Positions 6,801-45,320 of a stretch of 45,320 bases of DNA are shown piece after piece. This DNA is from an uncultured delta proteobacterium. GTDB lineage: Bacteria; Desulfobacterota; Binatia; Bin18. The notes under the pieces were generated by a model. That model did no database searches. It was not told the DNA's origin and worked only from the letters and a program-made list of their open reading frames with translations. The translations under genes were made by a program, and so were the position numbers. The DNA lies in the NCBI GenBank assembly GCA_963733195.1, contig CAVTCR010000016.1:1-45320 (forward strand). The letters run 5' to 3'. Position 1 is the first letter of the stretch; each line of letters starts with the position of its first letter.

Positions 6801-7448
6801 CAGCGGCGGACGCCGTTTCAGGCGCACCTGATCGCCATAGCGGCGCATCTCCTCTTGCATGCGCAACGCGGCATACAGCGCACGCTGGGGATGATCTTCA
6901 TGGGCAATCGGCGCGCCGAACAGGGCAAAGATGCCATCGCCCAGCGCCTGGGCGACATAGCCCTCATAGCGATGCACCGCATCCATCATGAGCTGCAGCG
7001 CAGGGTCAATGATGGCACGGGCCTCTTCCGGATCGAGCCCTTCAATCAGTGCGGTGGAGCCTTTGAGGTCGGCAAACAGCGCGGTGATGGTCTTGCGTTC
7101 GCCATCACTTGCCCCACGGGCTTCCAGCGCGGCTTGTTCAGCGCGAATGCGTTCGGCCAAATGAGGCGGAGTGTAGGAGATTGGGGGTTGGGGATTAGGG
7201 GTTAGGGATTGGGTGGAACTCGGAACTTGGAACTTGGAATTCGGAACTGGCGCAGCGCCGTCCCCGGCCCAGACCAACACTTCGCCGTCTTTATCGACCG
7301 CCAGCTCTTGCCCGGTGATGAGTTCGAACTTGAGGTCTTCGAGGGCGTCGTCATCCAAACTAAACTCGCGCTTCAGCGCCCGATACGTGATCCGCCCCTT
7401 ACGCTGGAGTAAGACGCTGGCTTGTTCGACCACTTCGGAAAACTTCAT
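3876..7448 (-). pseudogene. Adenylate/guanylate cyclase-AAA ATPase-TPR (STAND) protein, paralog 2; multiple frameshifts
   Basis: ORF 5889..7448 has ERKTITALFADLKGST, GDG, GEPGLGKSRL and FEDLHWID. It continues in ORFs 4747..5901 and 4116..4700 and ends with the family terminus WFTEGFDTKDLQEAKALL. Confidence 0.92.
5748..5807. repeat. GTAG-type REP doublet (60 bp) inside the cyclase coding sequence
   Basis: GTAGGGGCGCAC..GTGCGCC plus GGGCCGAC..GTCGGCCCCTAC: two GC hairpins bounded by GTAG/CTAC. Confidence 0.75.
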
Positions 7449-9459: not shown

Positions 9460-10302
9460 ATGGCGAAGATTGAACCCATCACTGGACGTTATATTTACGT
9501 ACCCTACGAAGGCGAAGAGTACCGGGTCTATTATGAAGAGGCTGGTCAAGGGATACCCTTAGTGTGTTTGCATACGGCAGGGACCGACTCGCGTGAATGG
9601 CGACATCAACTCTGTGATCCCGATATCAATCGCAATTTCCGCGTTATTGCATTGGATCTCCCTCGACATGGGAAATCTATTCCTCCTAAAGGGTGGTGGA
9701 AGGAGGAATATAAGCTAACTGCGAAGTTCTATTCTGAGTTCCTCATGGCATTTTGCCGCGAACTCGGCCTCGAAAAACCCGTCATTATGGGCAGCTCGAT
9801 GGGAGGGAACATTTGCCTCCACTTGGCGCTCAATTTTGCCAATGATGTTCGTTCGCTTATTGCGATTGAAGCGTGTGACTACTCTCCAGGGTGGTGGTTA
9901 GACTGGTTGTGGAATCCGCACATGCACGGAGGCGAGGTTGCAGCCACCTCAGTGTATGGCCTCATGGCTCCGCAGAGTCCGCTCGAATACCGCCAAGAAA
10001 CTTGGTGGTATTATGCGCAAGGTGGCCCTGGAATCTTCAAGGGCGACCTCTACTTCTACAGTGTGGATCACGACTTCCGGCAACTCTGTAGTAAACTCAA
10101 TGGCAAAGTACCAATCTACTTTATGACTGGGGTGTATGACTTTGCCTGTACACCAGAAATGACCGAGCAGACAGCGAAAAAAGTCAAAGGTTCAGAATGC
10201 GTCATCATGGAAGAAATCGGCCATTTCCCGATGAGCGAGAACCCTGTCACCTTCAAGAAATACTTGATGCCAGTGCTGGCAAAGGTGCTGCAGAATCGAT
10301 AG
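9460..10302 (+). CDS. Alpha/beta fold hydrolase
   Basis: PLVCLHTAG, ALDLPRHGKS, nucleophile elbow GSSMGG, C-terminal GHF. Confidence 0.9.
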   Translation: MAKIEPITGRYIYVPYEGEEYRVYYEEAGQGIPLVCLHTAGTDSREWRHQLCDPDINRNFRVIALDLPRHGKSIPPKGWWKEEYKLTAKFYSEFLMAFCRELGLEKPVIMGSSMGGNICLHLALNFANDVRSLIAIEACDYSPGWWLDWLWNPHMHGGEVAATSVYGLMAPQSPLEYRQETWWYYAQGGPGIFKGDLYFYSVDHDFRQLCSKLNGKVPIYFMTGVYDFACTPEMTEQTAKKVKGSECVIMEEIGHFPMSENPVTFKKYLMPVLAKVLQNR

Positions 10303-17407: not shown

Positions 17408-17677
17408 ATGAACACATTCGGTAAAGGCATTATGATCGCAAGTGCAGTGGCAACTTTAGTAGCAAGTGGCTCGTTAGCTGCGCGGGCTGCTGACAAAGCC
17501 GGTGGCGATACGGTTAAGTGTGCCGGTATTAACTCATGCAAAGGAACGGGTGCATGCGGAGGAGGTGGGCATGGGTGCAAAGGGCAGAACTCTTGCAAAG
17601 GCCAAGGATGGGTAGAAGCCAGTGCGAAAGAGTGCGCTGACAAGGGTGGCAAAGTCGTTGCTGATGAGAAAAAGTAA
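17408..17677 (+). CDS. bufA2: Bufferin-type (six-Cys, BufA2-like) RiPP metallophore precursor with signal peptide
   Basis: AAGGAGG RBS; Sec-type signal ending AxA; C-x-G-x-N-S-C-K-G..C....C-K-G-Q-N-S-C-K-G-Q-G-W......C...GG; directly upstream of DUF692. Confidence 0.85.
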   Translation: MNTFGKGIMIASAVATLVASGSLAARAADKAGGDTVKCAGINSCKGTGACGGGGHGCKGQNSCKGQGWVEASAKECADKGGKVVADEKK

Positions 17678-17688
17678 GTGATGAAAGG

Positions 17689-17723
17689 AACGAGCCTCGG
17701 CAACAACTGAGGCTCGTTTTTTT
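17689..17723 (+). terminator. Intra-operon hairpin with U-tract
   Basis: AACGAGCCTC...GAGGCTCGTT-TTTTT between the precursor and the MNIO gene. Confidence 0.75.
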
Positions 17724-17737
17724 AGAGTCGTACACTC

Positions 17738-18586
17738 ATGAGTTGTACAGTTCCCTATCTTGGTCATGGTGTTGGCTTACGCACACAGCATTTCCCTCAC
17801 GTGTGGGATGGCACTGCACGTATCGATTGGTTCGAGGTCATCTCTGAGAATTTCATGCTGCGTGGCGGTCGTCCGTTGGCCGTGCTTGAGAAAGCAAGAG
17901 CCTTGGCTCCCCTGGTCTTGCATGGCGTATCCTTATCTCTCGGCTCAACTGACCCTCTTAATGAGCCTTATCTTTCTGATCTCAAGGCATTAGCGGAACG
18001 CTTTCAACCTGCCTGGGTCTCGGATCATCTGTGTTGGGGCAGTGTTGGTGGACATTACGCTCACGACCTACTGCCATTGCCGTACACTGACGAAGTGTTG
18101 GCGCATGTTGTCGAACGGGTTCAGCAGGTCCAAGACCGGCTAGGACGACAGATCCTGATCGAGAACGTGTCCAGCTATCTGACCTATGCCCATTCCACCA
18201 TGTCTGAGTGGGAGTTTCTTGCACAGATCGTGCAGCGGGCGGACTGCGGCATCTTGCTCGATGTAAACAACGTATATGTCAGCGCGACCAACCATGGGTT
18301 CGACGCACACGAATATCTTCTAGGCCTCCCCGTGGATCGTATCTGCCAAATACATTTGGCTGGTCACAGTACCTATGAAACGTACTTGCTCGACACACAT
18401 GACGGACCGGTGATTGCACCGGTATGGGAGCTGTATCGATTCGCGGTGCGACGTTTTGGTCGCGTTTCCACACTGATCGAGTGGGACGATAAAATTCCAG
18501 AGTTTCACGAACTGTGTGCTGAGGCAGAACGTGCATGTGCCATTGAACATGAGGTCTGGGAGCCTTCCTATGCTCAGTCTGCGTGA
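17738..18586 (+). CDS. bufB: MNIO (DUF692) multinuclear non-heme iron oxidative enzyme
   Basis: GVGLR, FEVISENF, HGVSLSLGS, SDHLCW, LLPLPYT, IENVSSY, LLDVNNVYV, QIHLAGH, DTH, LIEWD. Confidence 0.93.
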   Translation: MSCTVPYLGHGVGLRTQHFPHVWDGTARIDWFEVISENFMLRGGRPLAVLEKARALAPLVLHGVSLSLGSTDPLNEPYLSDLKALAERFQPAWVSDHLCWGSVGGHYAHDLLPLPYTDEVLAHVVERVQQVQDRLGRQILIENVSSYLTYAHSTMSEWEFLAQIVQRADCGILLDVNNVYVSATNHGFDAHEYLLGLPVDRICQIHLAGHSTYETYLLDTHDGPVIAPVWELYRFAVRRFGRVSTLIEWDDKIPEFHELCAEAERACAIEHEVWEPSYAQSA

Positions 18587-19379
18587 TTTGCAGTCGCGGT
18601 TTTTTTACTCGATTGCGCGTCCGATTCATTCTCCCGAAGAGGAATGGCAAGGGTTTGACCCATTGTTACTGCAGGTGATTCACACTCAAGGGAAACTCGG
18701 TGCAGAAGCACGGCTCGACATTTATGCGCAAATGTACTGCGCGCGTCTGCTAGATGCCTTGCAAGAAGATTTCCCGCGCGTCGCCGCAATTCTTGGTGAG
18801 GAGGATTTTCGCGAGATTGGTCGTGCGTATTTACGGCAGTTTCCCTCTTCTCATCCCTCACTTCGTTATCTTGGTACTCACTTCGCCGAGTTTTTGACTA
18901 CACGACCAGTAGGTACCTCATTGCCTTTTCTTGGCGATCTTGCGCGCCTCGAACGGATGCGCCTTGATGTCTTTGACGCGCCGGATGCCGAACCCTTGCG
19001 GCTGGAAGACTTGCAAGTAATTCCTGCTGAAGCCTGGGCGACGGTTCGGTTTCGACTCATTCCTGCGTTACTCATGCTGACTTGCGCCTGGCCAGTGCAA
19101 CAGATCTGGAAAGATGAAGGTTTCACTCTAAGTGACAAGCTGCAGCCGATGTCAACCGTACTTCGTGTGTGGCGGCAGGATTTTACCGTCTATCAAGCAA
19201 GTATGGATGCGATCGAACAAGCTGCTCTCACTGTGATGCAGGCAGGCGAATCATTTGCTAGCGTCTGCACTACCGTGGAGCCTCTCGTCAACCCAAGTGA
19301 GGACGTCTCCGCCACAGTTGGGAGTTTGCTCTTGCGGTGGATCGAAGACGGGATTCTCACCCGCACGTACGAAGTCTAA
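18570..19379 (+). CDS. bufC: MNIO partner protein (DUF2063/BufC-like)
   Basis: LRDLQ..F, RLDIYAQMYCARLLDALQEDFP, FPSSHPSL..LG..F..FL, DLARLE; overlaps the bufB stop. Confidence 0.88.
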   Translation: MLSLRDLQSRFFYSIARPIHSPEEEWQGFDPLLLQVIHTQGKLGAEARLDIYAQMYCARLLDALQEDFPRVAAILGEEDFREIGRAYLRQFPSSHPSLRYLGTHFAEFLTTRPVGTSLPFLGDLARLERMRLDVFDAPDAEPLRLEDLQVIPAEAWATVRFRLIPALLMLTCAWPVQQIWKDEGFTLSDKLQPMSTVLRVWRQDFTVYQASMDAIEQAALTVMQAGESFASVCTTVEPLVNPSEDVSATVGSLLLRWIEDGILTRTYEV

Positions 19380-28702: not shown

Positions 28703-29824
28703 ATGTCACAGCGCACCAATCCGCCGTTTCGGGCTGATGTTGTCGGCAGCTTGTTACGCCCCGCCTCGCTGCTGGTGGCGCGTGAGCAGCACAAGAAGAG
28801 CGAAATCACCGCGGCAGCCCTGCGTGCGCTTGAGGATGACGCCATCCGTGACGCTGTCAAGTTGCAAGAGGACGTGGGCCTACAGGTCGCTACCGATGGC
28901 GAGTATCGACGCGAGCTGTGGCATATGGATTTCCTCTCTAAGTTCGTGAATGCCGAGATGTACGAGGCAGGGATCAAGATCAAATTCCATTCCGAGCAGG
29001 GTGACATCGACTTCACGCCTCCTGGTATCCGCGTGGTCGGCAAGCTAGCGCGCCCACAAAACGGTATTTTCGTCAAAGATTTTGCGTACCTGAAATCTGT
29101 CACGAACGTCACGCCCAAGCAGACTATTCCGTCGCCGACCAACATGCATTTTCGCGGTGGTCGCAAGGTGATCGATGCGCAAGCCTATCCTGAACTTGAC
29201 GAATTTTATGCTGATCTCGCACGTCTCTATCGTGAAGAGATCGATAGCTTCGCCAAGGCCGGCTGCAGGTATCTGCAGATCGACGATGTCAACTTTACGT
29301 ATATGTGCGACCCTAAGCTCAGAGCGGACGTACGTACCAATATCAACGAAGAACCAGAACAGCTTACGTATACCTACGCTAAACTTATCAACGATTCGAT
29401 CGCGAGCCGTCCCATGGACATGGCGGTGTGCGTGCATATGTGTCGTGGTAATGCCTTTTCGACGTGGATGGCAGAAGGTAGCTACGATCCTGTGGCCGAG
29501 GTGATTTTTAACGAGATCAAGGTCGATGGCTTCTTCCTTGAGTATGACACGCCGCGTGCTGGGGACTTCACGCCGCTCCGTTTCGTGCCTAAAGGCAAGA
29601 TGATTGTGTTGGGTCTTGTGACGACCAAGCATGGACGACTCGAAAACAAGGACGACCTCAAACGGCGCATCGAAGAAGCTGCCAAGTACGTTCCGATCGA
29701 ACAACTCGCGCTGTCTCCGCAATGTGGGTTCGCCAGCGGTGCCGCGGGTAACAAACTGTCACATAATGACCAGCGGGCCAAGCTCGAACTCGTTGTTCAG
29801 ACTGCCCGCGAAGTGTGGGGCTAA
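28703..29824 (+). CDS. Cobalamin-independent methionine synthase II family protein (catalytic domain only)
   Basis: PPFRADVVGSLLRP, TDGEYRR, HMCRGN, FLEYD, LSPQCGF (Zn ligands). Confidence 0.92.
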   Translation: MSQRTNPPFRADVVGSLLRPASLLVAREQHKKSEITAAALRALEDDAIRDAVKLQEDVGLQVATDGEYRRELWHMDFLSKFVNAEMYEAGIKIKFHSEQGDIDFTPPGIRVVGKLARPQNGIFVKDFAYLKSVTNVTPKQTIPSPTNMHFRGGRKVIDAQAYPELDEFYADLARLYREEIDSFAKAGCRYLQIDDVNFTYMCDPKLRADVRTNINEEPEQLTYTYAKLINDSIASRPMDMAVCVHMCRGNAFSTWMAEGSYDPVAEVIFNEIKVDGFFLEYDTPRAGDFTPLRFVPKGKMIVLGLVTTKHGRLENKDDLKRRIEEAAKYVPIEQLALSPQCGFASGAAGNKLSHNDQRAKLELVVQTAREVWG

Positions 29825-29872
29825 ATCGAAGCACATGACATTCGTACACTTTATAATGTGACCACTCGGTTG

Positions 29873-29933
29873 TGTCATTCTGAGCGGAGCGAAGAATCTC
29901 TCGGAGAGACCCTTCGTTGCACTCAGGGTGACA
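29873..29933. repeat. REP-like palindromic element
   Basis: TGTCATTCTGAGCGGAGCGAAGAATCTC-TCGGA-GAGACCCTTCGTTGCACTCAGGGTGACA, an imperfect inverted repeat. Confidence 0.75.
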
Positions 29934-30113
29934 CCCCTGGTGCGCCAATCTTTTGTGGTCTGATTTAGATGTAGCCATATGGAGACTCCTACATATAGCC
30001 AGGCAGAGGTGTCTATATGTGACCATTTCTGTCTACCCATAGGAACGTGTTTCTGCTAATAGGAACAAATGGTGCAGTTGAATTGTCGCCAGACAGCTTG
30101 TGAGAGAAACTTA

Positions 30114-30678
30114 TGACTGTTAGCTTCGCCGATATCGAGGACAAGTTCGACCGCGTGTTTGGCTTCATCCGTCTGCGACCTTGAGCGAATTCTCACTCTC
30201 GATCCAGGAGCCAACTTTGCTGTAGCCACCCTTGTCGCTTGTGCATGCGAGACCTTAGCGCGATATCGCTACGTGAAGGAAGAAAGGTGCCGATGCCTTT
30301 TCACAGCTTTTACCCTCCGGTCCGTTCCAGACGATAGCAAAGACGCTCTACGAGGTTCTCAGGAACGGTTTCGTTCATCATTCCAATGCCGCAGACATTC
30401 GAGTCGGTGGAACAATCGTGCGCCTTGCTGTCGCTTGGAAGGAGCACCTGCACCTTTCGGTAAAAGAGATTGAGGGTGTTCCTAATCTCATCCTTAATGT
30501 AACGCAGCTTTGCCGTGACCTCTTTTCGTCCTTTGACGAGTATCGAGCTAAACTAGAAAAGAATGGCGAGGCAAGGGATCGCTTTTTCACGACGTATCGC
30601 CAAATCGGCATAAAGGAGGTGACGGTTCCTAGTGAAATCGCTGCCTGGCGGGAAATTCTAAAAATTGATCAAACGTAA
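30114..30678 (+). pseudogene. HEPN-motif hypothetical protein, frameshifted
   Basis: Stitched reading: MTVSFADIEDKFDRVFGFI..DLERIL..ANFAVATLVACACETLARY...AKTLYEVLRNGFVHH..(RxxxxH)...LILNVTQLCRDL. Confidence 0.6.
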
Positions 30679-30776
30679 CCAGAGTATCTTTCGGTAAGGT
30701 CGTCTCTTGATGCAGGTTGCATCCCTATGCTATGCCGCACCGCGTAGGCCCGGAAGCGACACAGAGAGGTTCTTTC

Positions 30777-31428
30777 ATGGATCAAAACACTCAGTGGCGA
30801 CGCCGACTTGACGAAACATTGGACCGGCTTTCTGCTCAACTCCGAGCAGATCTCTACGACAACGTAGTTGTTGAGGTAGTTCGTGACTGGTTCAGTTCTT
30901 GGGATTCTGCTGGCTGATCTGAACACGAGGATACGTACCAAACTTTCTGAGCAATCCCCCCTAGTCGAGCGAAAAGTAAAGAGCGCCCTTGGGGAGTTTG
31001 AGTCCTCTTTGAAAGCAGACCTCCAATCGGCAGCAACAAACAGTCCGAAGGGAAACATAGACCTTGCGGGTGCCGAAGAGCAGATCTCGGCTCGTATCGC
31101 AGACATAATTGGCATGATAATTACGGTCGTCGGTGCCACACTGGCGGGAGGAGGGGGAACGGCACTCCTCGCTAGTGGGCCAGTCGGGTGGATCATTGGG
31201 CTAATCGGGGCTGCGATCGTCTATGTGCTTGGCCGTGGAGTTGTAAAAGACATGATCGAGACACAAATCCGAACAATGAGCCTCCCGCCGTTCCTGAAGA
31301 GATCTGCGAAGAGCAAGGTTGCCACTGAACTGTCCTTGAATGCGGGTAGATTCGAGGCCGAGATCCATTCGTTACTCCGAGAGAAATGTGAACCCCTTTA
31401 CCGCGCGATTCACGAAATCAATGTCTGA
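30777..31428 (+). CDS. Hypothetical protein with glycine-zipper membrane hairpin, one frameshift near 30900
   Basis: AGAGAGG RBS and ATG 30777; helical N-terminus, then LAGGGGTALLASGPVGWIIGLIGAAIV. Confidence 0.6.
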
Positions 31429-32319
31429 CTACTTCCGCCGTCTATCGAAAGAACCTGAGCTTCCTCCAGTGAAATACCGCTGGGAGAGTAAGTATCATTC
31501 TCTCCTTTCGAGAGAACCTGCCGAAGTGTTGGGAGTCGCCCTCGCCACTCCGGATATCGAAAGCAGCATTAGCGGGGCTCTTGCGGCGCGTTTTAACTAT
31601 AATGGTGACAAGTACGATAAGGTCATCGACTACGTATACAACGAGATAAAAGTCGGCGGGTCCAGCCTGCATCACAATCTTGATGGCTCACACACGTTTC
31701 AAGGAGCCCTGGGGGCGCTACGACAAACCTTTCCCGAGGAACACGATTTCACGTTACGCCTCGAAGCCCTGGAGCATCTCGCTCGCGATTTCACAACGCC
31801 CTCTGGAATTAACCCGTTCTTGTCACCGACCAGCTTTGCTCAGGCCAAGCTCTTCTTACAAGAGACTGGTCTATCCCCCTCGCTAGCGAATGATCTTTTG
31901 AATCTGAACGCTGCGGAGATGGCTGGGGCGGTCTTTGGACCGGGTCTCCTCTTGCTGCAAGGCTCTCTGAATAACGATGAGTCCACGTGGAGTGCCGCAC
32001 GGCAGGTTGGCCGTTTAGCAGCAACCTATTTCTTTGCTGGAAATGCGATTGGTCTCTTGTGGCGCTTGTGCTTTGTTCATCCGTTCCGTGACTGCCGACC
32101 ATCGAGAGGACGTTGTAACCAGCTATGCTATCGGAATTGGTGAGGTGGTTTTGGCCGCCACCCTATTCCCTTTCGTTCCCTTATCGGTAACCTTGATTAT
32201 CGCAACAGCGGCAAGTGCCTGGGTGGCACAAGCTGTTTAGGGCAGATCTTGGCTCGGAGCTTGACGCCCTCTTTCGCGTGCAGTTTCCGCAGTACAGATC
32301 TTACCTGAGTCAGATCTGA
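31421..32319 (+). CDS. Hypothetical membrane-associated protein, frameshifted near the 3' end
   Basis: ATG overlaps the previous stop; HHNLDGSHT..EHLARDFTTPSGINPF, then hydrophobic helices; a probable end at TGA 32319 just before the attC. Confidence 0.55.
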
Positions 32320-32342
32320 AAACGTAGGTTACGGAAGGGGCT

Positions 32343-32403
32343 GTCTAACAAAAGCTCGCAGGCCGACGCTCGCTACGCTCGCGGCTGAAGTTTAGCGTTA
32401 GGC
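32343..32403 (+). mobile_element. attC recombination site
   Basis: R'' GTCTAAC, internal imperfect palindrome GCAGGCCGACGCTCGCTACGCTCGCGGCTGAAG, R' GTTAGGC; 61 bp. Confidence 0.8.
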
Positions 32404-32416
32404 TTCAGTGACACAT

Positions 32417-33013
32417 ATGGACACTTGGCTTTCAACCGATCTTTATGAAGAAGCCATATCGGGCTTGCATCTTGCCGCGGGCAACACTCGGGCAGTAGCG
32501 GAATACCCCTATCCTTGGAAATGGGCCATTCTTGGCCTCCAGAGTGCCCTTCAGGCTTTCATGGTCCTTGCATTGGAGAACAGCAACGGTCTCCTCGCGC
32601 TCAAAGATGACACCGTGGCCAAGTGGATGCGGTCATACCGGGAGGGTAAACCCCTACCCGAGGAAAAACTTGACTGGTTTCCCGCTCTCTATGACAAGAT
32701 CAAAAGTAATCGCATGCTTTTCTTGGTTGTCAGCAAGAAGTATGAGCCAGATCCAACGCATGACTACAGTGTCAATAAGCTAAACGAGTTTAGAAATGCT
32801 TTCATCCACTTCTTGCCCAGCCGGTGGCTTCTTGACGTCACCGGCCTGCCCCGCATCTGCCGAGATTGCCTGGATGTGATTAAGTTTCTCGCGTGGGAGT
32901 CGGGCAACGTGACTTGGTACGATGACCGCACGGCTGAAAGGGCGAAACATGCGATCGAAGAGCTTGCCCTTGCTCTTGAGGCGAGGCGATTGCAATATAC
33001 ACTCAACGTTTAA
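32417..33013 (+). CDS. HEPN-domain protein (gene cassette)
   Basis: WKWAILGLQSALQAFM..., KLNEFRNAFIHF (RxxxxH); starts 14 bp after the attC and its stop lies inside the next R'' box. Confidence 0.75.
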   Translation: MDTWLSTDLYEEAISGLHLAAGNTRAVAEYPYPWKWAILGLQSALQAFMVLALENSNGLLALKDDTVAKWMRSYREGKPLPEEKLDWFPALYDKIKSNRMLFLVVSKKYEPDPTHDYSVNKLNEFRNAFIHFLPSRWLLDVTGLPRICRDCLDVIKFLAWESGNVTWYDDRTAERAKHAIEELALALEARRLQYTLNV

Positions 33014-33099
33014 CGCGTGACTGGAGTGGACCACCAAGGAAGCGGCCCGTCTTGACCAGGCTCGCTCGTCCGACGAGCTTCAGCCGCCAAGCGTTAGGC
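33008..33099 (+). mobile_element. attC-like site (degenerate)
   Basis: GTTTAAC overlapping the stop codon ... CAGCCGCCAAGC-GTTAGGC; 92 bp. Confidence 0.6.
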
Positions 33100-33119
33100 C
33101 CTAAGAGCACAAAGCGCGC

Positions 33120-34127
33120 ATGGATAACGGCATTGTCGATTCAAAAGTCCATTTGTTGCGAGCCGAAAAACTCGCTTCAGAGTTTGAGGTTTTAGGTGTT
33201 TCAATTATTGCTCATTTGTTAGCAATTCCTCGCCTTTTCTCGAAAAAAGAGTTTGATAGGATACCGGAGTCAACGATCCAATGGTTTGGCTATCTGTACA
33301 GTCACCATGAAAAGATGTTGGGGTACCGGCAGGCTTGGATCGGAAAGGCTTTTGAATATGCGGTCGCCGAACTGTTCAATAATCACTCCGAACCCTACTG
33401 GTCGCTGATTTGCAGAGGAATCGACAGCGCCCTGTTAACAAGAAAGTCTTCTCGGGTAAGCGCGGTAAGCCTTGATATCGAACGGCTGTCATGCGTTCGG
33501 GTTTCCAAGGAATGTGTAGATGCCGAAGATTTGAAACGTGAATTTGGTCGCTTTCGTATTCTCTCGGACGCAAGACGTTCCATCGAAAATGTAGCGAAAA
33601 AATATCCAGAGCTAGAAACCAAGGTTGATGTACTTTTTTGTGAGAGAGGAACTGTGGAAGCTCGCCGATTTGCTATCATGGCTTCGCTCAAAGTAAACAG
33701 GAAGGCCTTTTTACAGGACAACGTTCGCCAGGTTTTTCGCAGCTTCCCAATTGATTTGGGAATCAGTGTCGAAACAGAAAAGTACCGAGCTGTCAGATTC
33801 GAGGAAAGTGTAGGTGTTCACGTCGTTTATCTACCGATGGATGTTACGGAAGTATATGCTTGGGAAAATGCAACAAAGATAGTGGAAAGAGCCTTAATCG
33901 ACAGAGAGAGTAACCGAATTATCCGGTACTTCCGAAGTTTTTTCCGGCCAGAGACTCCCACATACTATTGGGTTGATTTCCTAGCCAAGAGACTAGAAGT
34001 AGATATCAAGGACGTTGCTCAAGAGATTCGCCAAAGGCTTGGCCAAGCACCAAGGGAGCGGCTTATTACTGTACCAGTTCTCCTTGGAACTGAAGAAGAC
34101 GCGGTACTGGATCTTGTTGTACAGTGA
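33120..34127 (+). CDS. Hypothetical protein, PD-(D/E)xK nuclease-like (gene cassette)
   Basis: GKAFEYAV helix, KVDVLF, ASLKVN arrangement; visibly AT-richer than the backbone; bounded by GTTAGGC (33093) and the complementary GCCTAAC (34142). Confidence 0.55.
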   Translation: MDNGIVDSKVHLLRAEKLASEFEVLGVSIIAHLLAIPRLFSKKEFDRIPESTIQWFGYLYSHHEKMLGYRQAWIGKAFEYAVAELFNNHSEPYWSLICRGIDSALLTRKSSRVSAVSLDIERLSCVRVSKECVDAEDLKREFGRFRILSDARRSIENVAKKYPELETKVDVLFCERGTVEARRFAIMASLKVNRKAFLQDNVRQVFRSFPIDLGISVETEKYRAVRFEESVGVHVVYLPMDVTEVYAWENATKIVERALIDRESNRIIRYFRSFFRPETPTYYWVDFLAKRLEVDIKDVAQEIRQRLGQAPRERLITVPVLLGTEEDAVLDLVVQ

Positions 34128-34286
34128 AGAGGCACTGTCGGGCCTAACCCTTGTCAGGCTTCCGGTGTCAAGAGGGCAGCCGGATGCCTGCGCACAGGGG
34201 CGGAGTGACTGTCCGTGAAACAATTGGTGATCCTGTAGAGCCAAGCGGTCGAGGTTGACTTGTTTCGGTTGAGCATAAAACTGATC

Positions 34287-34490
34287 CTATTTCCCCGGCG
34301 CCTTCACCAGCGCGATCGCCCCGCTTGGGCACAGATCCACAACGTCTTCTGCTGCCTCGCGCAAATCATCACCGATTGTTTCAACGATCACCCGCGGCGT
34401 GCCGTCAGGGTCGGATTTGATCAATTCTGCGTGCAAGTATGAACACTGACCGGCCTTGCGGCACTTTTGATAATCAATCACCAGCCGCAT
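34287..34490 (-). CDS. Ferredoxin (3Fe-4S type, P450-associated), copy 1
   Basis: CRKAGQC...CPSGAI; ATG immediately follows the P450 stop. Confidence 0.88.
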   Translation of the reverse strand: MRLVIDYQKCRKAGQCSYLHAELIKSDPDGTPRVIVETIGDDLREAAEDVVDLCPSGAIALVKAPGK

Positions 34491-34491
34491 C

Positions 34492-34842
34492 TCAGCGCCC
34501 TTCAACGTGCAAACTGAGCGGTAACCGTTCGAACCCAAAGACGACCGGGCTTTGTGATTGACGTACTGCGGCAGCGGTGCCGTGTGTGATGGTGGAGAAA
34601 CGATCAAGAAACGCATTCAACGAGATCTTCGCTTCTGCTCGCGCCAATGGCGCGCCTAAGCAGTAGTGAAGGCCGACGCCAAAGGCGACATGATTACGCA
34701 GGTCGCGATCGAGCCGGAATTCATCCGGATTGGGAAACTCTTTTGGGTCGCGATTGGCGGCACCGAAGAAAACCGCCACCAGTTCATTCGCGGGAATTGT
34801 GATTCCTGACAGCGTCACTTCTTTGGTCGTCGTGTGCAGCAA
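34492..34842 (-). pseudogene. Cytochrome P450 C-terminal fragment (5' truncated)
   Basis: AANRDP, NHVAFGVGLHYCLGAPLARAE (heme Cys); no ExxR or N-terminal part upstream. Confidence 0.88.
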
Positions 34843-34859
34843 TTGCTAATTTTCTGGGG

Positions 34860-34925
34860 GATTGCTTCGTTGCAAAGCCCGTTCTGAGCGAAGCGCAGTG
34901 GGGTCGAAGGGCTCCTCGCAATGAC
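34860..34925. repeat. REP/MITE-like element at the P450 truncation point
   Basis: GATTGCTTCG...(CTGAGCGAAGCG nested)...CTCCTCGCAATGAC. Confidence 0.6.
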
Positions 34926-35019
34926 TCCTCAAAACCACCCAAACGGACCACTGAAATTGTTGCTCCACTCCCGTTCCGCAACATACACGCCAACGTGTGA
35001 CCAGAGGTGAAGGAGGTCT

Positions 35020-40396: not shown

Positions 40397-41047
40397 CAGA
40401 CACAAACCGCGGCCAAAGAAATTGCTAGCTGGAGACACGTTGTAATAGCCATGACAATTGGCTCATGGTCATGTAACGAGCGTTTCGGCGAATTCAGTCC
40501 GATGAGTGTAGTCACCCTACGTGATATTTCTATGGAATCATGGGGCTGTTCCTGAATTGACAGTTTACCGCGAGTCGGAGTAGTAGGGAAAAGACGCCCG
40601 AACGATGGAGGTGGGCGTTGTGGGGACAGGACAGGTGCGTATGGTCCGAGCGTCCCCAGTTCAACAACAACGAGGTGTTCTATGGGAGATCTCACGCCTC
40701 CTGGCTACAACCGCCCGCCGTGGTGGACACCGCCACCAGGTGGGTTTCCGAGCGACCGTTTCACTGTATAGACTAAGCCTTCATTGTGGTGCTTGAAAGC
40801 ACCGGCCGCTGTGCGGCCATACAAAAAGGAAGGTTTCACGTCACACGGAGCGATCAATTAACAGTGAACGGTGCAAACGGGAGTAACCTCCAGTCCATCG
40901 ACGGCGGGTGATGCGTAAATATGTAGTTGCATGAACCATGCGCGCATGGGACGTGTATGGCGGGCGACCTTCCTGAGAAGGTTGCCCGGATGGCACACTC
41001 GTGCGGCCTAAGGCGATGCCTGATGGATTCGATTTGGAGGGCCTCCA

Positions 41048-41835
41048 TGAAGACACTAGTGGGAATTTTTCGTTCTGCTGCGACCGCGGAAGCTGCCTTG
41101 CAGGCGTTACACGCATCAGGCCTGCCGGATGATGAGGTGCTTATGCTTACGCCGCGGTCGATCCTGAATCTCCATGTGGGACCATTACCCGAGTCGCATC
41201 CCCACGGATCCTGCGGGATCACTGCAGGTCACATTGCCGGAGCCATCACCGGCTTTGCTGGTGGTACGCTGAGTGGGGCCGTAATAATCCTCCTAGTACC
41301 TGGGGTTGGCCCACTACTCGCCACTGGTGCCTTGGCGCTTGCGAGCCTGATTGGCGTCGCTGTTGGTGCGGCAGTCGGTGATCTGTTGCAGAAGACTTTG
41401 GGACCACGCCTGTCGTACGAGGATGTCCTTGTCTATCGCGATGCGCTGAGACATGGACACGATATTGTGATTGTCCACCCAGCGGATGACGTGAAGACAG
41501 ACAAGGTGCAGCAAGTGTTCAGCGATTTTGGTGCTGAGAATCTTGAAGACGCACGCGACCATTGGTGGCACAGGCTACGGGATAGCCAGATTAAGGCTTC
41601 TGATACTCCTCACGACACATTCACTGCGACTGAGGTTGTCTACCTTCAGGGATTTGAAGCTGCGATAAACCCAGGCGTCTGGGGTCATTCGTACGAGAAG
41701 GCAGCGGCATTGCTACGTCAGCAAGAACCCGCGACCTATGAAGAGGTGGCGTTCCGGCATGGCTATGAACGCGGTCAGAGTTACCGGCGAGCGACACTAG
41801 AGACGAAACAGAAGGAAGTCATGCCAGTGCTCTGA
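41048..41835 (+). CDS. General-stress-protein-like (YflT-type N-terminus plus Gly-zipper) hypothetical protein
   Basis: GGAGG RBS before MKTLVGIFRSAATAEAALQAL..G, LLVPGVGPLLATGALA, Y.DALRHG..IVIV. Confidence 0.7.
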
Positions 41836-41886
41836 GATAATTGGTGATGTGTCAAAATCTGAAGGCATGGCTGACAGTAGGGGATT

Positions 41887-42456
41887 GTGGATAAAGTTGC
41901 CCGAGACGAGCCTATGAATCCACGTCTCCTCCTGCAACAGTTGATTGCCTATGAACAGCGCATTCATTGCTGGTACCAAACGTTGGCGGTAAGAGCCGTA
42001 ATGCCAGCCAAAGCACGCGCCTTTTGGCGGTCCATGGCCGAGGACCACCTTCAGTGTCTTGCGCTGTTGGAGCAATCGGAGCGGGTGTTGGACCTTATCG
42101 AATCGCTTCCGGAAGTTCTTCGTGACGTCTTTCTCAATGTGGAGAATCCGGTGGCAACCGCTGAAGCGGCGCTGCAGCGGGTTGACCTCAGCGTTGAGGA
42201 AGCACTGCAGCACAGCGTTAGCATTGAGTCCTCGGCGTTGAACGGACTTGTCCGTATGTGGCTCCAAGGGTTCTCAACCGCAGCTGGATCATTCTTGCCG
42301 GATCTGGAGCATGAACATCACGTACGCTACCGGCGTCTGGTCGAGACCATAGAGACCTTGAGTCACGACCCGCAGCTGTACGTGCAGGCCTTGGCGATTT
42401 GGCGTGCTGACCAGCCACATCTTAAGGGTCGAATTACTGTGCGCCTAAAATCTTGA
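41887..42456 (+). CDS. Ferritin/rubrerythrin-like four-helix hypothetical protein
   Basis: EQRIHCWY..L...FWRSMAEDH, IES, EHH..RL pattern; start uncertain. Confidence 0.5.
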   Translation: MDKVARDEPMNPRLLLQQLIAYEQRIHCWYQTLAVRAVMPAKARAFWRSMAEDHLQCLALLEQSERVLDLIESLPEVLRDVFLNVENPVATAEAALQRVDLSVEEALQHSVSIESSALNGLVRMWLQGFSTAAGSFLPDLEHEHHVRYRRLVETIETLSHDPQLYVQALAIWRADQPHLKGRITVRLKS

Positions 42457-42633
42457 GTCGGTTATTGATTCGACGAATGGTGCGGCCACACATCACGGTG
42501 GCTGTGCTTATCGGTTGCCTATGACTGTTCGCCGATGGATCGATGTCAGGAGAAAACGGACAGTTTCTCTCCCGCTGTTGTACAGCCCTACACAGTCGAA
42601 TCATTGTTTTCACGGTAACGATCATGTGTTTCT

Positions 42634-42649
42634 CGGCACGACCTTTGCG
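42634..42649 (+). promoter_or_regulatory. Sigma-54 -24/-12 promoter motif
   Basis: CGGCACGACCTTTGCG (GG-N10-GC). Confidence 0.55.
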
Positions 42650-42759
42650 GATATTTCCGGTTGAGGAGTATCGGCGGCCGTAAATAGAATGGGTGAACCG
42701 TAACGCTCATAATGAGGTGAAATACGAGAGCACGACTGCAGCGGAAGACGAGAAAACGT

Positions 42760-43275
42760 ATGGTGATCCAACGACGTGCATATCGTGATTCAATTATGGG
42801 GACCACCCCCATAAAAAATGCCGACGCCCAACGAAAATCCGGGGGAAGTATTCCCACTGGAGCGTGGCGGCGGCTGAGATCACTTACATCGACTGCCGGT
42901 ATTCCTCGTGAAAAAACGATAGAGGCCCCTGTCGATCGCAAGAGGCTTAGCTCCGTCAATGAAGGACCATTGCCAGTCCAGTTCTTTCCTGTCCCTATGG
43001 ACGCGGTCGCTACAGTGAACGGTGGCCAACGTCTCTTGCTCGCGGTACTCGAGAACGCATTGCATGTATGGGTGCGTTATTGTCACGCGCGCGATATCAA
43101 GGGGCACCGGATCTTTAAGGAGACCGAGAGCTGGTTCTGGTCTACCCAGCACGACTATCTGTGTTCCTTTGAGTGCATCTGCGAGCATCTGCAACTGGAT
43201 CCGAACTACATTCGTCGCGGCTTACGCGCTTGGCAACACGTCCAGACAGCGCCGCGCGCTTCTATACTCCCATAG
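42760..43275 (+). CDS. Hypothetical protein (RLLLAVLE..A...WF...SFE.IC..L.LDP..IR motif)
   Basis: The C-terminal half is protein-like; true start uncertain. Confidence 0.6.
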   Translation: MVIQRRAYRDSIMGTTPIKNADAQRKSGGSIPTGAWRRLRSLTSTAGIPREKTIEAPVDRKRLSSVNEGPLPVQFFPVPMDAVATVNGGQRLLLAVLENALHVWVRYCHARDIKGHRIFKETESWFWSTQHDYLCSFECICEHLQLDPNYIRRGLRAWQHVQTAPRASILP

Positions 43276-43485: not shown

Positions 43486-44837
43486 CTTTTAGGGGTAGGG
43501 TTTTAGGCCGCCAGAAGCATCTCGGGAATTCCTCTCAGTGTGTTAGATTGAGCAGGCTGCGGCCACGGCTCTGGAATGAAGCGACCCCGCGGGAGACGAC
43601 GCTGATTGAGCAAGGCCACCAAGATGATGATCCAGCCTTGGCGAAAGATACTGACCAAGCGTAGTTGCGTCGCCTGTAGGGGCCGAGCTGCGGGAGCGTC
43701 GGCATCCGCCAACGGCAGCAACGTACTCACCGGAAGTGTCTCCTCCGCTAGGCCCCCGACACTGAGCAACCACACCGTCGCCACGGCCACCGCTAACCAC
43801 AATCGCGCGGCGCGCTGCGGATCACTCATACGGGTGCGCTGCCATTGCCACCCGCCACGTTTCGTAATCTTAAAGCCTTGTTCAATCCAGGCTCGTAATC
43901 CGTACCAACAGGCCTCCCCCGCACTGGGCGCGAGGTCGGTGAGCAACAACCACGGATCGTGATAGCTCTCGTCCCACCGCGCCAGTAGCGTGCAGTTGAG
44001 GCGCCGGCGCGCCCCCTGAAACGCCGTGCCCGTGCCCACCCACTGTGTACCAGGCTCCGGCACCAACTCGCGGAGCGGGTGATAGTGGGCGCTCTTGGCG
44101 GGCCGAAACGTCCCGCCGGTATTGATCCGCAGCAGCGGATGCCAGCCCAAGCGCACGATGCGCTGAAAGAGCCAGCGCGCATACAACCCGCGATCGGCGA
44201 GCACGATCACAAAAAACCGGCGCGGTACCACCGCCCGCACTTGGCGCAACATCCGCAACCATTCCCCACGCCACGCATGTTTCTCCGTGGCCGGTAACAC
44301 CGTCCACGCCACCGGAATCGCACAGCCCCGATAGACAACGCTGACCACTAACACGACGAACCGTTGCCCTAACGTCGTTGCATCTACAGCGAACGCCAGC
44401 TGCGTGCCCTCCCACCACCTCAGCACCCACGCCAATAACGGCGCAAAACAACTCTCCACCTGCAGCTCTTGCCGGGGACCGCCCCGTTTGGCCGTCGCCT
44501 CATAACACCATTCCCGCAATTGTTGCCGCACGCTATTGGGCTGACGCTCCAGCCCCGTCGCCAAAAAAAGACTCACCGCGGTCAGCGCACACGACCGCGC
44601 CAACACCATCCCCACACTCCACAACGCCAACACCGTCGCTTGCGGTTTGCTTAAGTGCGGCATATGGGTAGTGACCACCTGCGTCCATTGATACACTGCC
44701 TGTTGGCAAGACATCGCCTCCCTCCAACTCACTGAAATATGTCGCAATATCCCAGTATGCCGGTGGCGCGTCGTCTTGCCAGACCTCTCCCTTTGTAACT
44801 CGGTCAGCTCACTTCTCTAAAACCCTACCCCTGAAAG
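43486..44837 (-). mobile_element. IS4-superfamily insertion sequence with 21-bp terminal inverted repeats
   Basis: CTTTTAGGGGTAGGGTTTTAG (43486-43506) versus CTAAAACCCTACCCCTGAAAG (44817-44837), 20/21 match; imperfect flanking direct repeat GGGAA(G)AGGGC. Confidence 0.9.
43503..44714 (-). CDS. DDE transposase (IS4-like, DDE_Tnp_1)
   Basis: AVDAT, VLADRGLY, YGLRAWIEQGFKITKRGGW (YREK-like). Confidence 0.92.
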   Translation of the reverse strand: MSCQQAVYQWTQVVTTHMPHLSKPQATVLALWSVGMVLARSCALTAVSLFLATGLERQPNSVRQQLREWCYEATAKRGGPRQELQVESCFAPLLAWVLRWWEGTQLAFAVDATTLGQRFVVLVVSVVYRGCAIPVAWTVLPATEKHAWRGEWLRMLRQVRAVVPRRFFVIVLADRGLYARWLFQRIVRLGWHPLLRINTGGTFRPAKSAHYHPLRELVPEPGTQWVGTGTAFQGARRRLNCTLLARWDESYHDPWLLLTDLAPSAGEACWYGLRAWIEQGFKITKRGGWQWQRTRMSDPQRAARLWLAVAVATVWLLSVGGLAEETLPVSTLLPLADADAPAARPLQATQLRLVSIFRQGWIIILVALLNQRRLPRGRFIPEPWPQPAQSNTLRGIPEMLLAA

Positions 44838-44913: not shown

Positions 44914-45108
44914 TTACCCGTCGACTAGCACAATTGCTCCGCTCGGGCAGAGATCTACAACGTCTTCTGCTGCTTCGCGCAGAGCTTCATTAATTGCTTC
45001 GATGATTACTCGCGGTGTGCCGTCAGGGTCGGCCCTGATCAATTCCGCGTGCAAATATGAACACTGACCGGCCTTGCGGCATTTTTGATAATCAATCACT
45101 AGTCGCAT
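44914..45108 (-). CDS. Ferredoxin (3Fe-4S type), copy 2
   Basis: MRLVIDYQKCRKAGQC...CPSGAIVLVDG. Confidence 0.88.
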   Translation of the reverse strand: MRLVIDYQKCRKAGQCSYLHAELIRADPDGTPRVIIEAINEALREAAEDVVDLCPSGAIVLVDG

Positions 45109-45109
45109 C

Positions 45110-45320
45110 TCAGCGCCCTTCAACGTGCAAGCTGAGCGGTAGCCGTTCGAACCCAAAGACGACCGGGCTTTGCGATTGACGCACTGCGGGAGCGGCGCTG
45201 TGTGAGAGGAGGGAGAAGCGATCAAGAAACGCATTCAAGGAGATCTTTGCTTCTGCTCGCGCCAATGGCGCGCCTAAGCAGTAGTGAATGCCAACGCCAA
45301 AGGCGACATGATTACGCAGG
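45110..45320 (-). CDS. Cytochrome P450, C-terminus (continues beyond window)
   Basis: LRNHVAFGVGIHYCLGAPLARAEAKISLNAFLDRF...GFERLPL. Confidence 0.88.
   Translation of the reverse strand, partial: LRNHVAFGVGIHYCLGAPLARAEAKISLNAFLDRFSLLSHSAAPAVRQSQSPVVFGFERLPLSLHVEGR

Follow-up and report, generated by a model that had tools for sequence, protein, structure and literature searches.

Small integron cassette arrays without an integrase are described as CALINs or SALINs (PMC4889954, 10.1101/2022.09.11.507474). A CALIN comprises two or more attC sites on the same strand, within 4 kb, that are recognised by an attC covariance model. Integron cassettes can also carry defence genes: one report states that a third of the tested cassettes with unknown function protected against phage (10.1101/2024.07.02.601719), and another describes HEPN-only and Mrr-type cassettes that protect Vibrio (10.1101/2024.07.02.601686). 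Here we analyse a window of 45,320 nt (the whole stretch of DNA under study), for which a preliminary description had proposed a CALIN carrying several defence cassettes. The window contains at least one true attC site, the last cassette recurs in a different attC array, and no integrase is encoded on the contig. The locus is probably a chromosomal integron cassette array that has been orphaned and is decaying, and a defence role of its cargo is plausible.

Five GTTAGVY boxes lie between 30119 and 34148, all in the cassette orientation (there are 11 such boxes in the window), and the cargo is five genes (ORFs A to E), all from unnamed families. The clear site, attC1 (32343..32403, + strand), is at the 3' end of the unit formed by ORFs B and C and has the boxes that had been described, R'' GTCTAAC at 32343 and R' GTTAGGC at 32397-32403. 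We searched with two independent attC models, R1 and R2, which were trained without the window sequence and are small, home-made, and roughly calibrated. attC1 scored 27.2 bits with R1 (E = 3.7e-5), as the sole significant hit among 23 matches with E ≤ 10 (the runner-up had 12.1 bits), and 28.9 bits with R2 (E = 3.2e-6), as the sole significant hit among 11 matches with E ≤ 5. The preliminary description would have given up the integron reading if the attC covariance model had no match; our attC models do match 32343-32403. attC1 is also 75% identical to one attC of L004, an array from Ca. Binatia; a blastn search against plasmids gave only 4 matches, all spurious.

A second site, attC2 (33008..33099, + strand), had been proposed as degenerate. 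Its R boxes pair and are correctly placed (R'' GTTTAAC at 33008, overlapping the stop codon of ORF D, and R' GTTAGGC at 33093-33099), but its L boxes are irregular and its score in a local model search was not significant (6.0 bits, E = 3.6). attC2 does satisfy a positional test, which just 2 of the 61 ORF ends in the window pass, the other being a chance match within a gene. In four loci without an attC model match, none of 91 ends passed this test, and in class 1 plasmids 5 of 235 did, all of them true attC sites; it is insensitive, with 0 of 31 passes in the L004 array. A decayed attC that had been suggested at 30673-30749 was not supported: the model was silent, the positional test failed, and its 3' part can be translated in frame into sequence that two ORF B relatives conserve. 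Two other measures were dropped. Folding energies did not discriminate (the three proposed sites had z of 1.11, -0.12, and 0.12, no better than shuffles, and four control attC sites ranged from -0.7 to -5.4), and a strict L-box heuristic overlooked both real sites and gave 6 matches, versus 3-11 in shuffles. A second palindrome, suspected at 34855-34930, was not significant (folding z = 0.42).

The start codons lie 14, 21, and 28 nt downstream of three R' ends, in agreement with the earlier observation that genes begin shortly (14-27 bp) after these boxes. On the right, the last attC has been lost except for its R'' box GCCTAAC (34142-34148, + strand), which does exactly complement the GTTAGGC that opens that cassette, and homology to L004 stops there. 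This box is followed by a hairpin (34155-34190, folding z = -2.98) and then by a convergent ferredoxin gene. On the left, GTTAGCT (30119..30125, + strand) could be an R' box or an insertion junction. It comes from the box count and we give it low weight: it falls within the opening codons of ORF A, and the model search found no attC upstream. The same 7-mer also ends attC sites in L004 and in L001, an Alteromonas plasmid. The array is bordered by a methionine-synthase-like gene on one side and a P450/ferredoxin remnant on the other. A tblastn search with IntI1 against the whole 45 kb window gave a best E of 2.7, and no tyrosine recombinase was found in the 50 of 182 window ORFs that were scanned with Pfam. 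No tRNA was found in the window, and no Rfam family reached its gathering score (two sub-threshold matches are both outside the array).

The last cassette (about 33093-34148), which encodes ORF E, is shared with L004. Window 33087-34149 corresponds to L004 9972-11038 (77% over 1073 columns), starting from the R' end of attC2, and the flanks of the shared unit are unrelated. Because the homology is confined to R'..R'' in a different attC array, cassette E moves as a unit. L004 has six same-strand attC sites, of which 4 were absent from the model training set; cassette E is the last in this array, whose cargo includes TA, TIR, REase, and MTase genes. The recurrence of the same R'-R'' unit in another array identifies E as an integron gene cassette, and a relative of ORF D in L001 is flanked by complementary boxes (GTTAGCT / AGCTAAC); ORFs A, B, and C are outside that showing. 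None of L001-L003, which contain relatives of ORF D (3 of 14 plasmid matches were examined), has a significant attC. The second of the two genome contexts that we examined for ORF E, L005 from Nitrospira, does not contain an attC match either (best E = 0.79), and the neighbourhood has transposase, integrase, HNH, and type I R-M remnants. Homologs in fixed chromosomal operons had been named as grounds against the integron reading, and the relatives that we examined are not in fixed operons. The model match and the unit-length homology thus uphold an integron-cassette origin, as the missing intI upholds the description of the array as integrase-less. The GC content of the ORF E cassette region is 45%, versus 52-56% for host genes.

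ORF E (33120..34127, + strand) is intact, with 335 amino acids, and belongs to a family with 52 relatives, mostly of 333-342 amino acids. That it is nuclease-like holds as a lead: the candidate catalytic residues E79 (51/51, possibly inflated by the word-based homologue search), D170 (52/53), K191 (52/52), and D205 (44/51) are conserved in the family, but the fold match is weak. The core of the predicted structure (residues 73-242) aligned to BsaWI with a Z of only 5.2 (rmsd 4.0 over 119 residues, 16% identity). BsaWI was the best-aligned nuclease, with the same Z as MotA, and both fold-match lists contain many PD-(D/E)XK nucleases that align with residues 73-242. Foldseek gave no match at E ≤ 0.001, and the viral fold library likewise. 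The window copy has V205 in place of D205, as in 3 of 51 family members that have V here. We consider it likely that the family is a solitary, Mg-dependent PD-(D/E)XK DNase whose window copy lacks the last acidic residue. A tblastn search of ORF E against plasmids gave no match, and a quick-method tree with 45 of 53 family members added nothing.

ORF D (32417..33013, + strand; cassette 32398-33093) is intact, with 198 amino acids, and is HEPN-like (R126-N-x-F-x-H131). R126, N127, F129, and H131 are invariant in the three aligned ORF D proteins, and the motif agrees with the HEPN-type R-x4-6-H with a polar residue after the arginine. ORF A (30114..30678, + strand) is in three frame pieces, and the last piece (30277-30678) has RNGFVH, an R-x4-H of the HEPN type with a polar N after the R. 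The array had been said to encode two RxxxxH HEPN-type proteins; for ORF D the motif stands as a lead, but no Pfam HEPN family was reached (the best was Apea-like HEPN, with E = 0.036, for a relative). The nearest named atlas clusters to ORF D score 0.77-0.80, below 0.9, with HEPN_RiboL-PSP among them. For ORF A, searches of Pfam, PADLOC, plasmids (tblastn with its last piece), and phages found no family or homologue. The motifs make it likely that ORF D, and probably ORF A, is a stand-alone HEPN RNase.

ORF B (30777..31428, + strand; about 216 amino acids) is helical with a hydrophobic hairpin and is 93-94% identical to P0083, in two pieces. In PADLOC it matches positions 401-560 of the 601 in the LeoBC profile (E = 4e-9), and its intact relatives match positions 355-561 (E = 6e-13 to 3e-8), so ORF B appears to resemble only the C-terminal, non-GTPase part of the dynamin-like LeoBC. 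The region upstream (30673..30749, + strand) may be a decayed stretch that once encoded the N-terminus of ORF B: 30732-30776 is in frame, has a conserved counterpart in P0086, and can be aligned with the linker that follows a zinc ribbon in P0084 (p ~0.02-0.04). ORF C (31421..32319, + strand; 298 amino acids) overlaps ORF B by 8 nt and is 95-98% identical to P0054, in three pieces. It is a member of an unnamed family of membrane proteins, with 498 clusters at E ≤ 0.001, that has a soluble helical N-terminal part and, by hydropathy, hydrophobic helices at the C-terminus; D70, H84, D88, H91, and D123 are invariant in an alignment of 90 sequences. A likeness of this His/Asp pattern to YdjM-type metal hydrolases was considered, but Pfam gave it no support. 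Searches of Pfam, PADLOC, and folds found no match for the family. The model of ORF C (pLDDT 71, pTM 0.59) matched generic helical bundles only (best Z = 6.3), and these matches would neither support nor exclude a new fold. A BTH_I2691 / VasX-type pore-forming effector was considered and rejected (atlas score 0.93; recognition 1821, below the 2300 mark; no VasX_N in the 87 family members scanned). ORF B (query P0085) and ORF C (queries P0054 and P0092) had no tblastn matches in plasmids. The gene overlap is the sole basis on which B and C can be called a coupled membrane pair; a fusion was sought among the proteins examined but none was found, and the two profiles are unrelated. A prediction of the B-C complex gave a score of 0.00, with no verdict, and counts neither way. 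Tentatively, B and C may be a membrane-associated pair, with a putative His/Asp metal site in C.

The proposal of several defence cassettes was not borne out by PADLOC, which gave no complete system: it found nothing for A, C, D, and E and only the partial-domain LeoBC match for B, in version 2.0.0, which predates recent cassette systems. PDB sequence searches with the families of B, C, D, and E gave no credible match. We put the chance that at least one of D and E protects against phage or plasmids, in a toxin-like or abortive manner, at slightly under even. The cargo might well have other roles, with D and A as orphan toxin-type RNases, E as an orphan restriction enzyme separated from its methylase, and B and C as general membrane or lipid proteins; we rate this as a somewhat weaker but serious contender. 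It would account for the lack of defence-library matches for A, C, D, and E, for the N6/N4 methylase in the L004 cassette directly upstream of the E cassette, and for the ORF C family, in which 41 of 170 domain matches carry long extensions at the N-terminus, many of these extensions being low-complexity Ala/Lys/Thr repeats, and Pfam named no nuclease or NTPase fusion over 87 members. On the other hand, the E cassette itself contains no methylase, either in the window or in L004, none was found among the window ORFs scanned, and a scan of nine neighbouring ORFs in L005 recognised none; and the HEPN-only and Mrr-type cassettes reported from Vibrio are protective (10.1101/2024.07.02.601686).

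The array might instead be a SALIN, with one functional attC and cassette remnants that are dead or silent baggage, which we regard as possible though not favoured. This differs from an orphaned, decaying array mainly in the label and in present activity. The class of CALIN fits in that intI is missing from the contig and the cassettes are on the same strand, but by our home-made models just one attC is significant and the other is not. The valine in ORF E, the lack of a promoter signal (a scan found 1 versus 2.8 expected by chance), the frameshifts in A-C, and a report that SALINs outnumber CALINs (10.1101/2022.09.11.507474) also point to a SALIN. Against this, neither D nor E is broken or truncated, three cassettes keep R boxes, and B and C have nearly identical alleles that are intact. 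Relative to these alleles (93-98% identical), ORF B has one frameshift (near 30909) and ORF C has two (near 32060 and 32223), and these three testable breaks are all single extra bases, with no in-frame stop; ORF A has two, judged from reading frames alone. The frameshifts had been overlooked in the preliminary description. We favour sequencing errors over true decay as their cause with fair confidence. Since the long host genes that flank the array are unbroken, such errors would need to be local.

As an orphaned, decaying array, the locus could have arisen as follows. An IntI encoded elsewhere, or since lost, would have put the cassettes together in the order B-C (possibly with A), D, and E. 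Secondary-site insertion or rearrangement may have left the array between the methionine-synthase-like gene and the P450/ferredoxin remnant. It would now be mostly frozen, with the attC of E lost, that of D degenerate, and attC1 alone near canonical; no promoter for the cassettes is apparent.

ORFs A, B, and C could also form one three-gene unit from GTTAGCT at 30119 to attC1, with a HEPN RNase, a dynamin-like stalk/paddle, and a membrane metallo-protein. There is no attC between A and B and no GTTAGVY box in 30126-32342, and the decayed N-terminal extension of B would begin at the stop of A. We think this unlikely: the unit of 2.28 kb would exceed the largest cassettes, given as about 2 kb (PMC4889954), the box at 30119 is inside the first codons of A and matches the R'' of attC1 at 5 of 7 positions, and we saw no second locus with these genes. 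Chance palindromes in a fixed operon or generic island would fit folding energies not above those of shuffles and the two occurrences of GCGTTAGGC, reached by 6 of 100 shuffles, but this very improbable explanation appears to be largely refuted already by the independent model match (E ~1e-5) and by the fact that homology with an unrelated attC array ends at the R boxes.

Small arrays that lack an integrase occur commonly, and cassettes are already established as carriers of defence genes, so the locus alone alters the picture little. What makes it useful is that it points to two unnamed families, both well conserved and with candidate active sites (ORF E and ORF C), and to a dynamin-derived fragment without a GTPase (ORF B). 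Also, because we found no paper that joins Binatia and integrons, Binatia attC arrays such as L004 may be an unsampled source of cassettes. There is a modest chance that one or more defence systems not yet described are encoded in the array, with the methylase-free ORF E nuclease and the B-C unit as the candidates. If so, ORF E would be a nuclease carried on a cassette, with an active site permuted as in BsaWI, or B-C (possibly with the HEPN gene A) would combine a GTPase-less dynamin stalk/paddle with a membrane protein that has a new His/Asp metal site, as sensor and effector at the membrane.

Among described nucleases, ORF E is nearest to the CCGG-family type II enzymes BsaWI, AgeI, NgoMIV, and Cfr10I, as far as their published description goes (PMC4652773). 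E79, D170, K191, and D205 parallel E92, D145, K165, and D175 of BsaWI, and the family nearly fits the permuted motif PD-X21-53-K-X12-13-E, with 20 residues from D to K and 13 from K to D (PMC4652773). A CCGG-family type II R-M system was rejected: ORF E does not have the R-(D/E)R motif (the family columns after K191 are V/I/S, N, R, and variable), and the cassette has no methylase. ORF B matches LeoBC 355-561, which we take as the stalk and membrane paddle, from Eleos / LeoABC (PMC4159319, 10.1101/2022.12.12.520048). Eleos itself was rejected, as the array has no LeoA or GTPase match and the partner of ORF B is from an unrelated family. With the HEPN RNases, as described in PMC3710099, ORFs D and A share R-x4-H with a polar N after the R, and ORF D also has the upstream acidic residue.

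The arrangement itself is already known in kind, as a small CALIN/SALIN. Like those described (PMC4889954, 10.1101/2022.09.11.507474), it has cassettes bounded by attC sites on one strand within 4 kb, neither intI nor a remnant of it nearby, a small size, and cargo of unknown function; with one site that passes the models, it falls between the two definitions. The BRiCs (10.1101/2024.07.02.601719) and the Esos, Taranis, Epona, and Sucellos systems of Vibrio cholerae (10.1101/2024.07.02.601686) are reported as small one- or two-gene cassettes, and, compared by description, they have cargo types in common with those predicted for the window: HEPN-only proteins, Mrr/PD-(D/E)XK-type proteins, and membrane proteins.

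The preliminary description had proposed that 30114-34148 of the window is an integron cassette array without an integrase. We found that the window does contain a true attC site, that one of its cassettes moves as a single unit, and that it lacks a local integrase. We built two covariance models of attC solely from sites in other records. Model R1 combined 12 sites of class 1 integron plasmids with 2 of a locus (L004) in a Ca. Binatia MAG, 14 in all, with 93% of its cells paired and two badly aligning sites excluded; model R2 comprised 25 matches. With either model, the proposed clear site at 32343-32403, just upstream of ORF D (32417-33013), was the single significant match in the window (27.2 bits, E = 3.7e-5 with R1; 28.9 bits, E = 3.2e-6 with R2), and the runner-up scored about 12 bits. 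A search of the whole window with IntI1 from plasmid R388 gave no match (best E = 2.7).

A second, degenerate site had been suggested at 33008-33099. It was recovered at exactly these coordinates, but with a score of just 6 bits (E = 3.6). In its layout, R'' overlaps the stop codon of ORF D, and R' ends 21 nt upstream of ORF E (33120-34127). Among all ORF ends, 2 of 61 in the window and 5 of 235 in class 1 plasmids have this layout, against 0 of 91 in four loci where the attC models match nothing and 0 of 31 in L004. Because few ends elsewhere have the layout, and yet none in L004 does, the positional test is specific but insensitive. As described, GCCTAAC is present at 34142-34148; it is a lone R'' without the rest of a site, followed by a hairpin. 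At the other end, 5 of the window's 11 GTTAGVY boxes lie within 30119-34148, all in the cassette orientation, and the box at 30119 may mark the array's left end. For the third candidate, at 30673-30749, nothing supports an attC. It may instead be decayed coding sequence, because the region's 3' part is in-frame coding sequence in a relative of ORF B (P0086) and can be aligned to the linker that follows the zinc ribbon in another protein, P0084 (p about 0.02-0.04).

Scanning genomes for the ORF E family gave 88 pattern matches, which led to two loci. DNA homology to L004 covers 33087-34149 of the window, from R' box to R'' box (77% identity), and the neighbors of the cassette differ between the two. 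Upstream of the ORF E copy in L004, R1 detects six attC sites on the same strand, four of which are new to the model. This array (333-11370 of L004) carries PIN and HTH toxin-antitoxin genes, a DUF4365 nuclease, two methylases, a TIR fragment, and a PemK remnant. The same IntI1 query also detects a 19-residue intI-like C-terminal remnant there (9778-9834; 58%, E = 0.1), inside the array and in the cassette direction. The ORF E cassette is the last one in both places, and its own attC appears to be truncated at different points (34142-34148 in the window, 11031 onward in L004). In the other locus, from a Nitrospira MAG, the gene is surrounded by transposase, integrase, and HNH genes, and the model found no attC. 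ORF D has 14 plasmid matches; the contexts of three were examined, and none has a significant match to the attC model. GTTAGCT and the complementary AGCTAAC flank the Alteromonas copy, and an attC-like 3' half lies upstream.

ORF annotation shows chromosomal-looking DNA on both sides of the array: a cobalamin-independent methionine-synthase-like gene upstream (28703-29824, forward strand), and a ferredoxin with a 3' P450 remnant, convergent to the array, downstream (34287-34842, reverse strand). No tRNA genes or Rfam families were found in the window. The P450 3' end and ferredoxin are duplicated (34306-34702 and 44924-45320, 89% nucleotide identity); the copy adjoining the array lacks the 5' part of its P450, and the other adjoins an IS4 transposase (43503-44747). 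Elsewhere in the window, an MbnB/TglH/ChrH-family enzyme and a DUF2063 partner (17408-19379), with a small ORF upstream, have a RiPP-type layout, and three more ORFs at 40927-43275 match neither Pfam nor PADLOC. Between the upstream gene and the array is a strong palindrome (29870-29935; folding z = -3.46), with one full copy in the window, which may be REP-like or a terminator.

We propose that the cassettes were built by IntI and became stranded in the chromosome, either by insertion at a secondary site (10.1101/2022.09.11.507474) or by rearrangement (PMC4889954). They would now be largely immobile. They are probably also weakly expressed, because a promoter scan found 1 site versus 2.8 expected and because the hairpin at 29870-29935 stands between them and the upstream gene.

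Several of the ORFs are broken. Relative to intact alleles, ORF C (31421-32319) is in three pieces (298 aa, 95-98% identity) and ORF B (30777-31428) in two (215 aa, 93-94%); each break is one extra base, without in-frame stops. ORF A (30114-30678) is split over three frames in the same sense, as judged from the reading frames. That the damage is insertions only suggests local sequencing error, which would not be contig-wide because the long genes next door are intact. Two paralogous adenylate/guanylate cyclase-AAA-TPR genes (43-2861 and 4372-7227, 77% nucleotide identity) are each fragmented into numerous ORFs, and a rough alignment of the copies contains 56 one-base gaps; they are either noisy sequence or pseudogenes.

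The preliminary description also read the cargo as candidate defense genes, including two HEPN-type proteins and a nuclease-like protein. ORF D shares the HEPN signature (PMC3710099): R126-N-x-F-x-H131 is kept in all three aligned proteins. Its atlas look-alikes are 30 unnamed clusters (the best three at 0.97), and all named leads are below 0.9. ORF A carries RNGFVH and has no detectable relatives in the libraries tried. Most likely, ORFs D and A would be RNases and ORF E would be a DNase, with roles as toxins or as effectors of abortive infection.

For ORF E, none of 52 relatives (44-78% identity) matches Pfam. Its structure model is confident (pLDDT 87, pTM 0.89). Foldseek returned nothing significant, and in a wider structural search the top Z of 5.2 was common to MotA and BsaWI, but residues 73-242 repeatedly aligned to PD-(D/E)XK nucleases. 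The family's conserved E79, D170, K191, and D205 parallel E92, D145, K165, and D175 as given for BsaWI (PMC4652773), and D205 is predicted to be the second catalytic acid. Residue 205 is Asp in 44 of 51 family members and Val in the window (33732-33734).

ORF C belongs to a family of 498 clusters, with D70, H84, D88, H91, and D123 invariant in 90 aligned rows. Among 87 members scanned, PADLOC matched none and Pfam matched appended domains only. The structure model had no fold match, and in the atlas a resemblance to VasX-type effectors counts as weak on the tool's own scale. Many distant members (among P0107-P0228) have long, low-complexity Ala/Lys/Thr-rich N-terminal repeats; eight share an N-terminal region, which in four matches DUF413.

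The array as first described was confirmed in part, and its interpretation is partly supported. By analogy, cassette screens give prior odds for a defense role: as reported there, roughly one in three cassettes without a known function were protective (10.1101/2024.07.02.601719), and cassettes of the HEPN-only and Mrr types showed activity (10.1101/2024.07.02.601686). We regard it as possible, and on balance unlikely, that the array holds at least one new defense system, with the ORF E family or a B-C unit, possibly with A, as candidates. The parts that merit further work are the two unnamed families, those of ORFs E and C.

Compared with known systems, ORF E lacks the recognition motif of the CCGG-family enzymes. 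ORF B and three intact relatives, from a search restricted to 99-317 aa, match the LeoBC profile at positions 355-561 only. LeoBC is described as a dynamin-like protein and as half of the Eleos system (PMC4159319; 10.1101/2022.12.12.520048), whereas ORF B has neither a GTPase nor LeoA beside it. By the attC calls from R1 and R2, the array itself is a known kind of element, on the border between a CALIN (a cluster of attC sites without an integrase) and a SALIN (a single such site).
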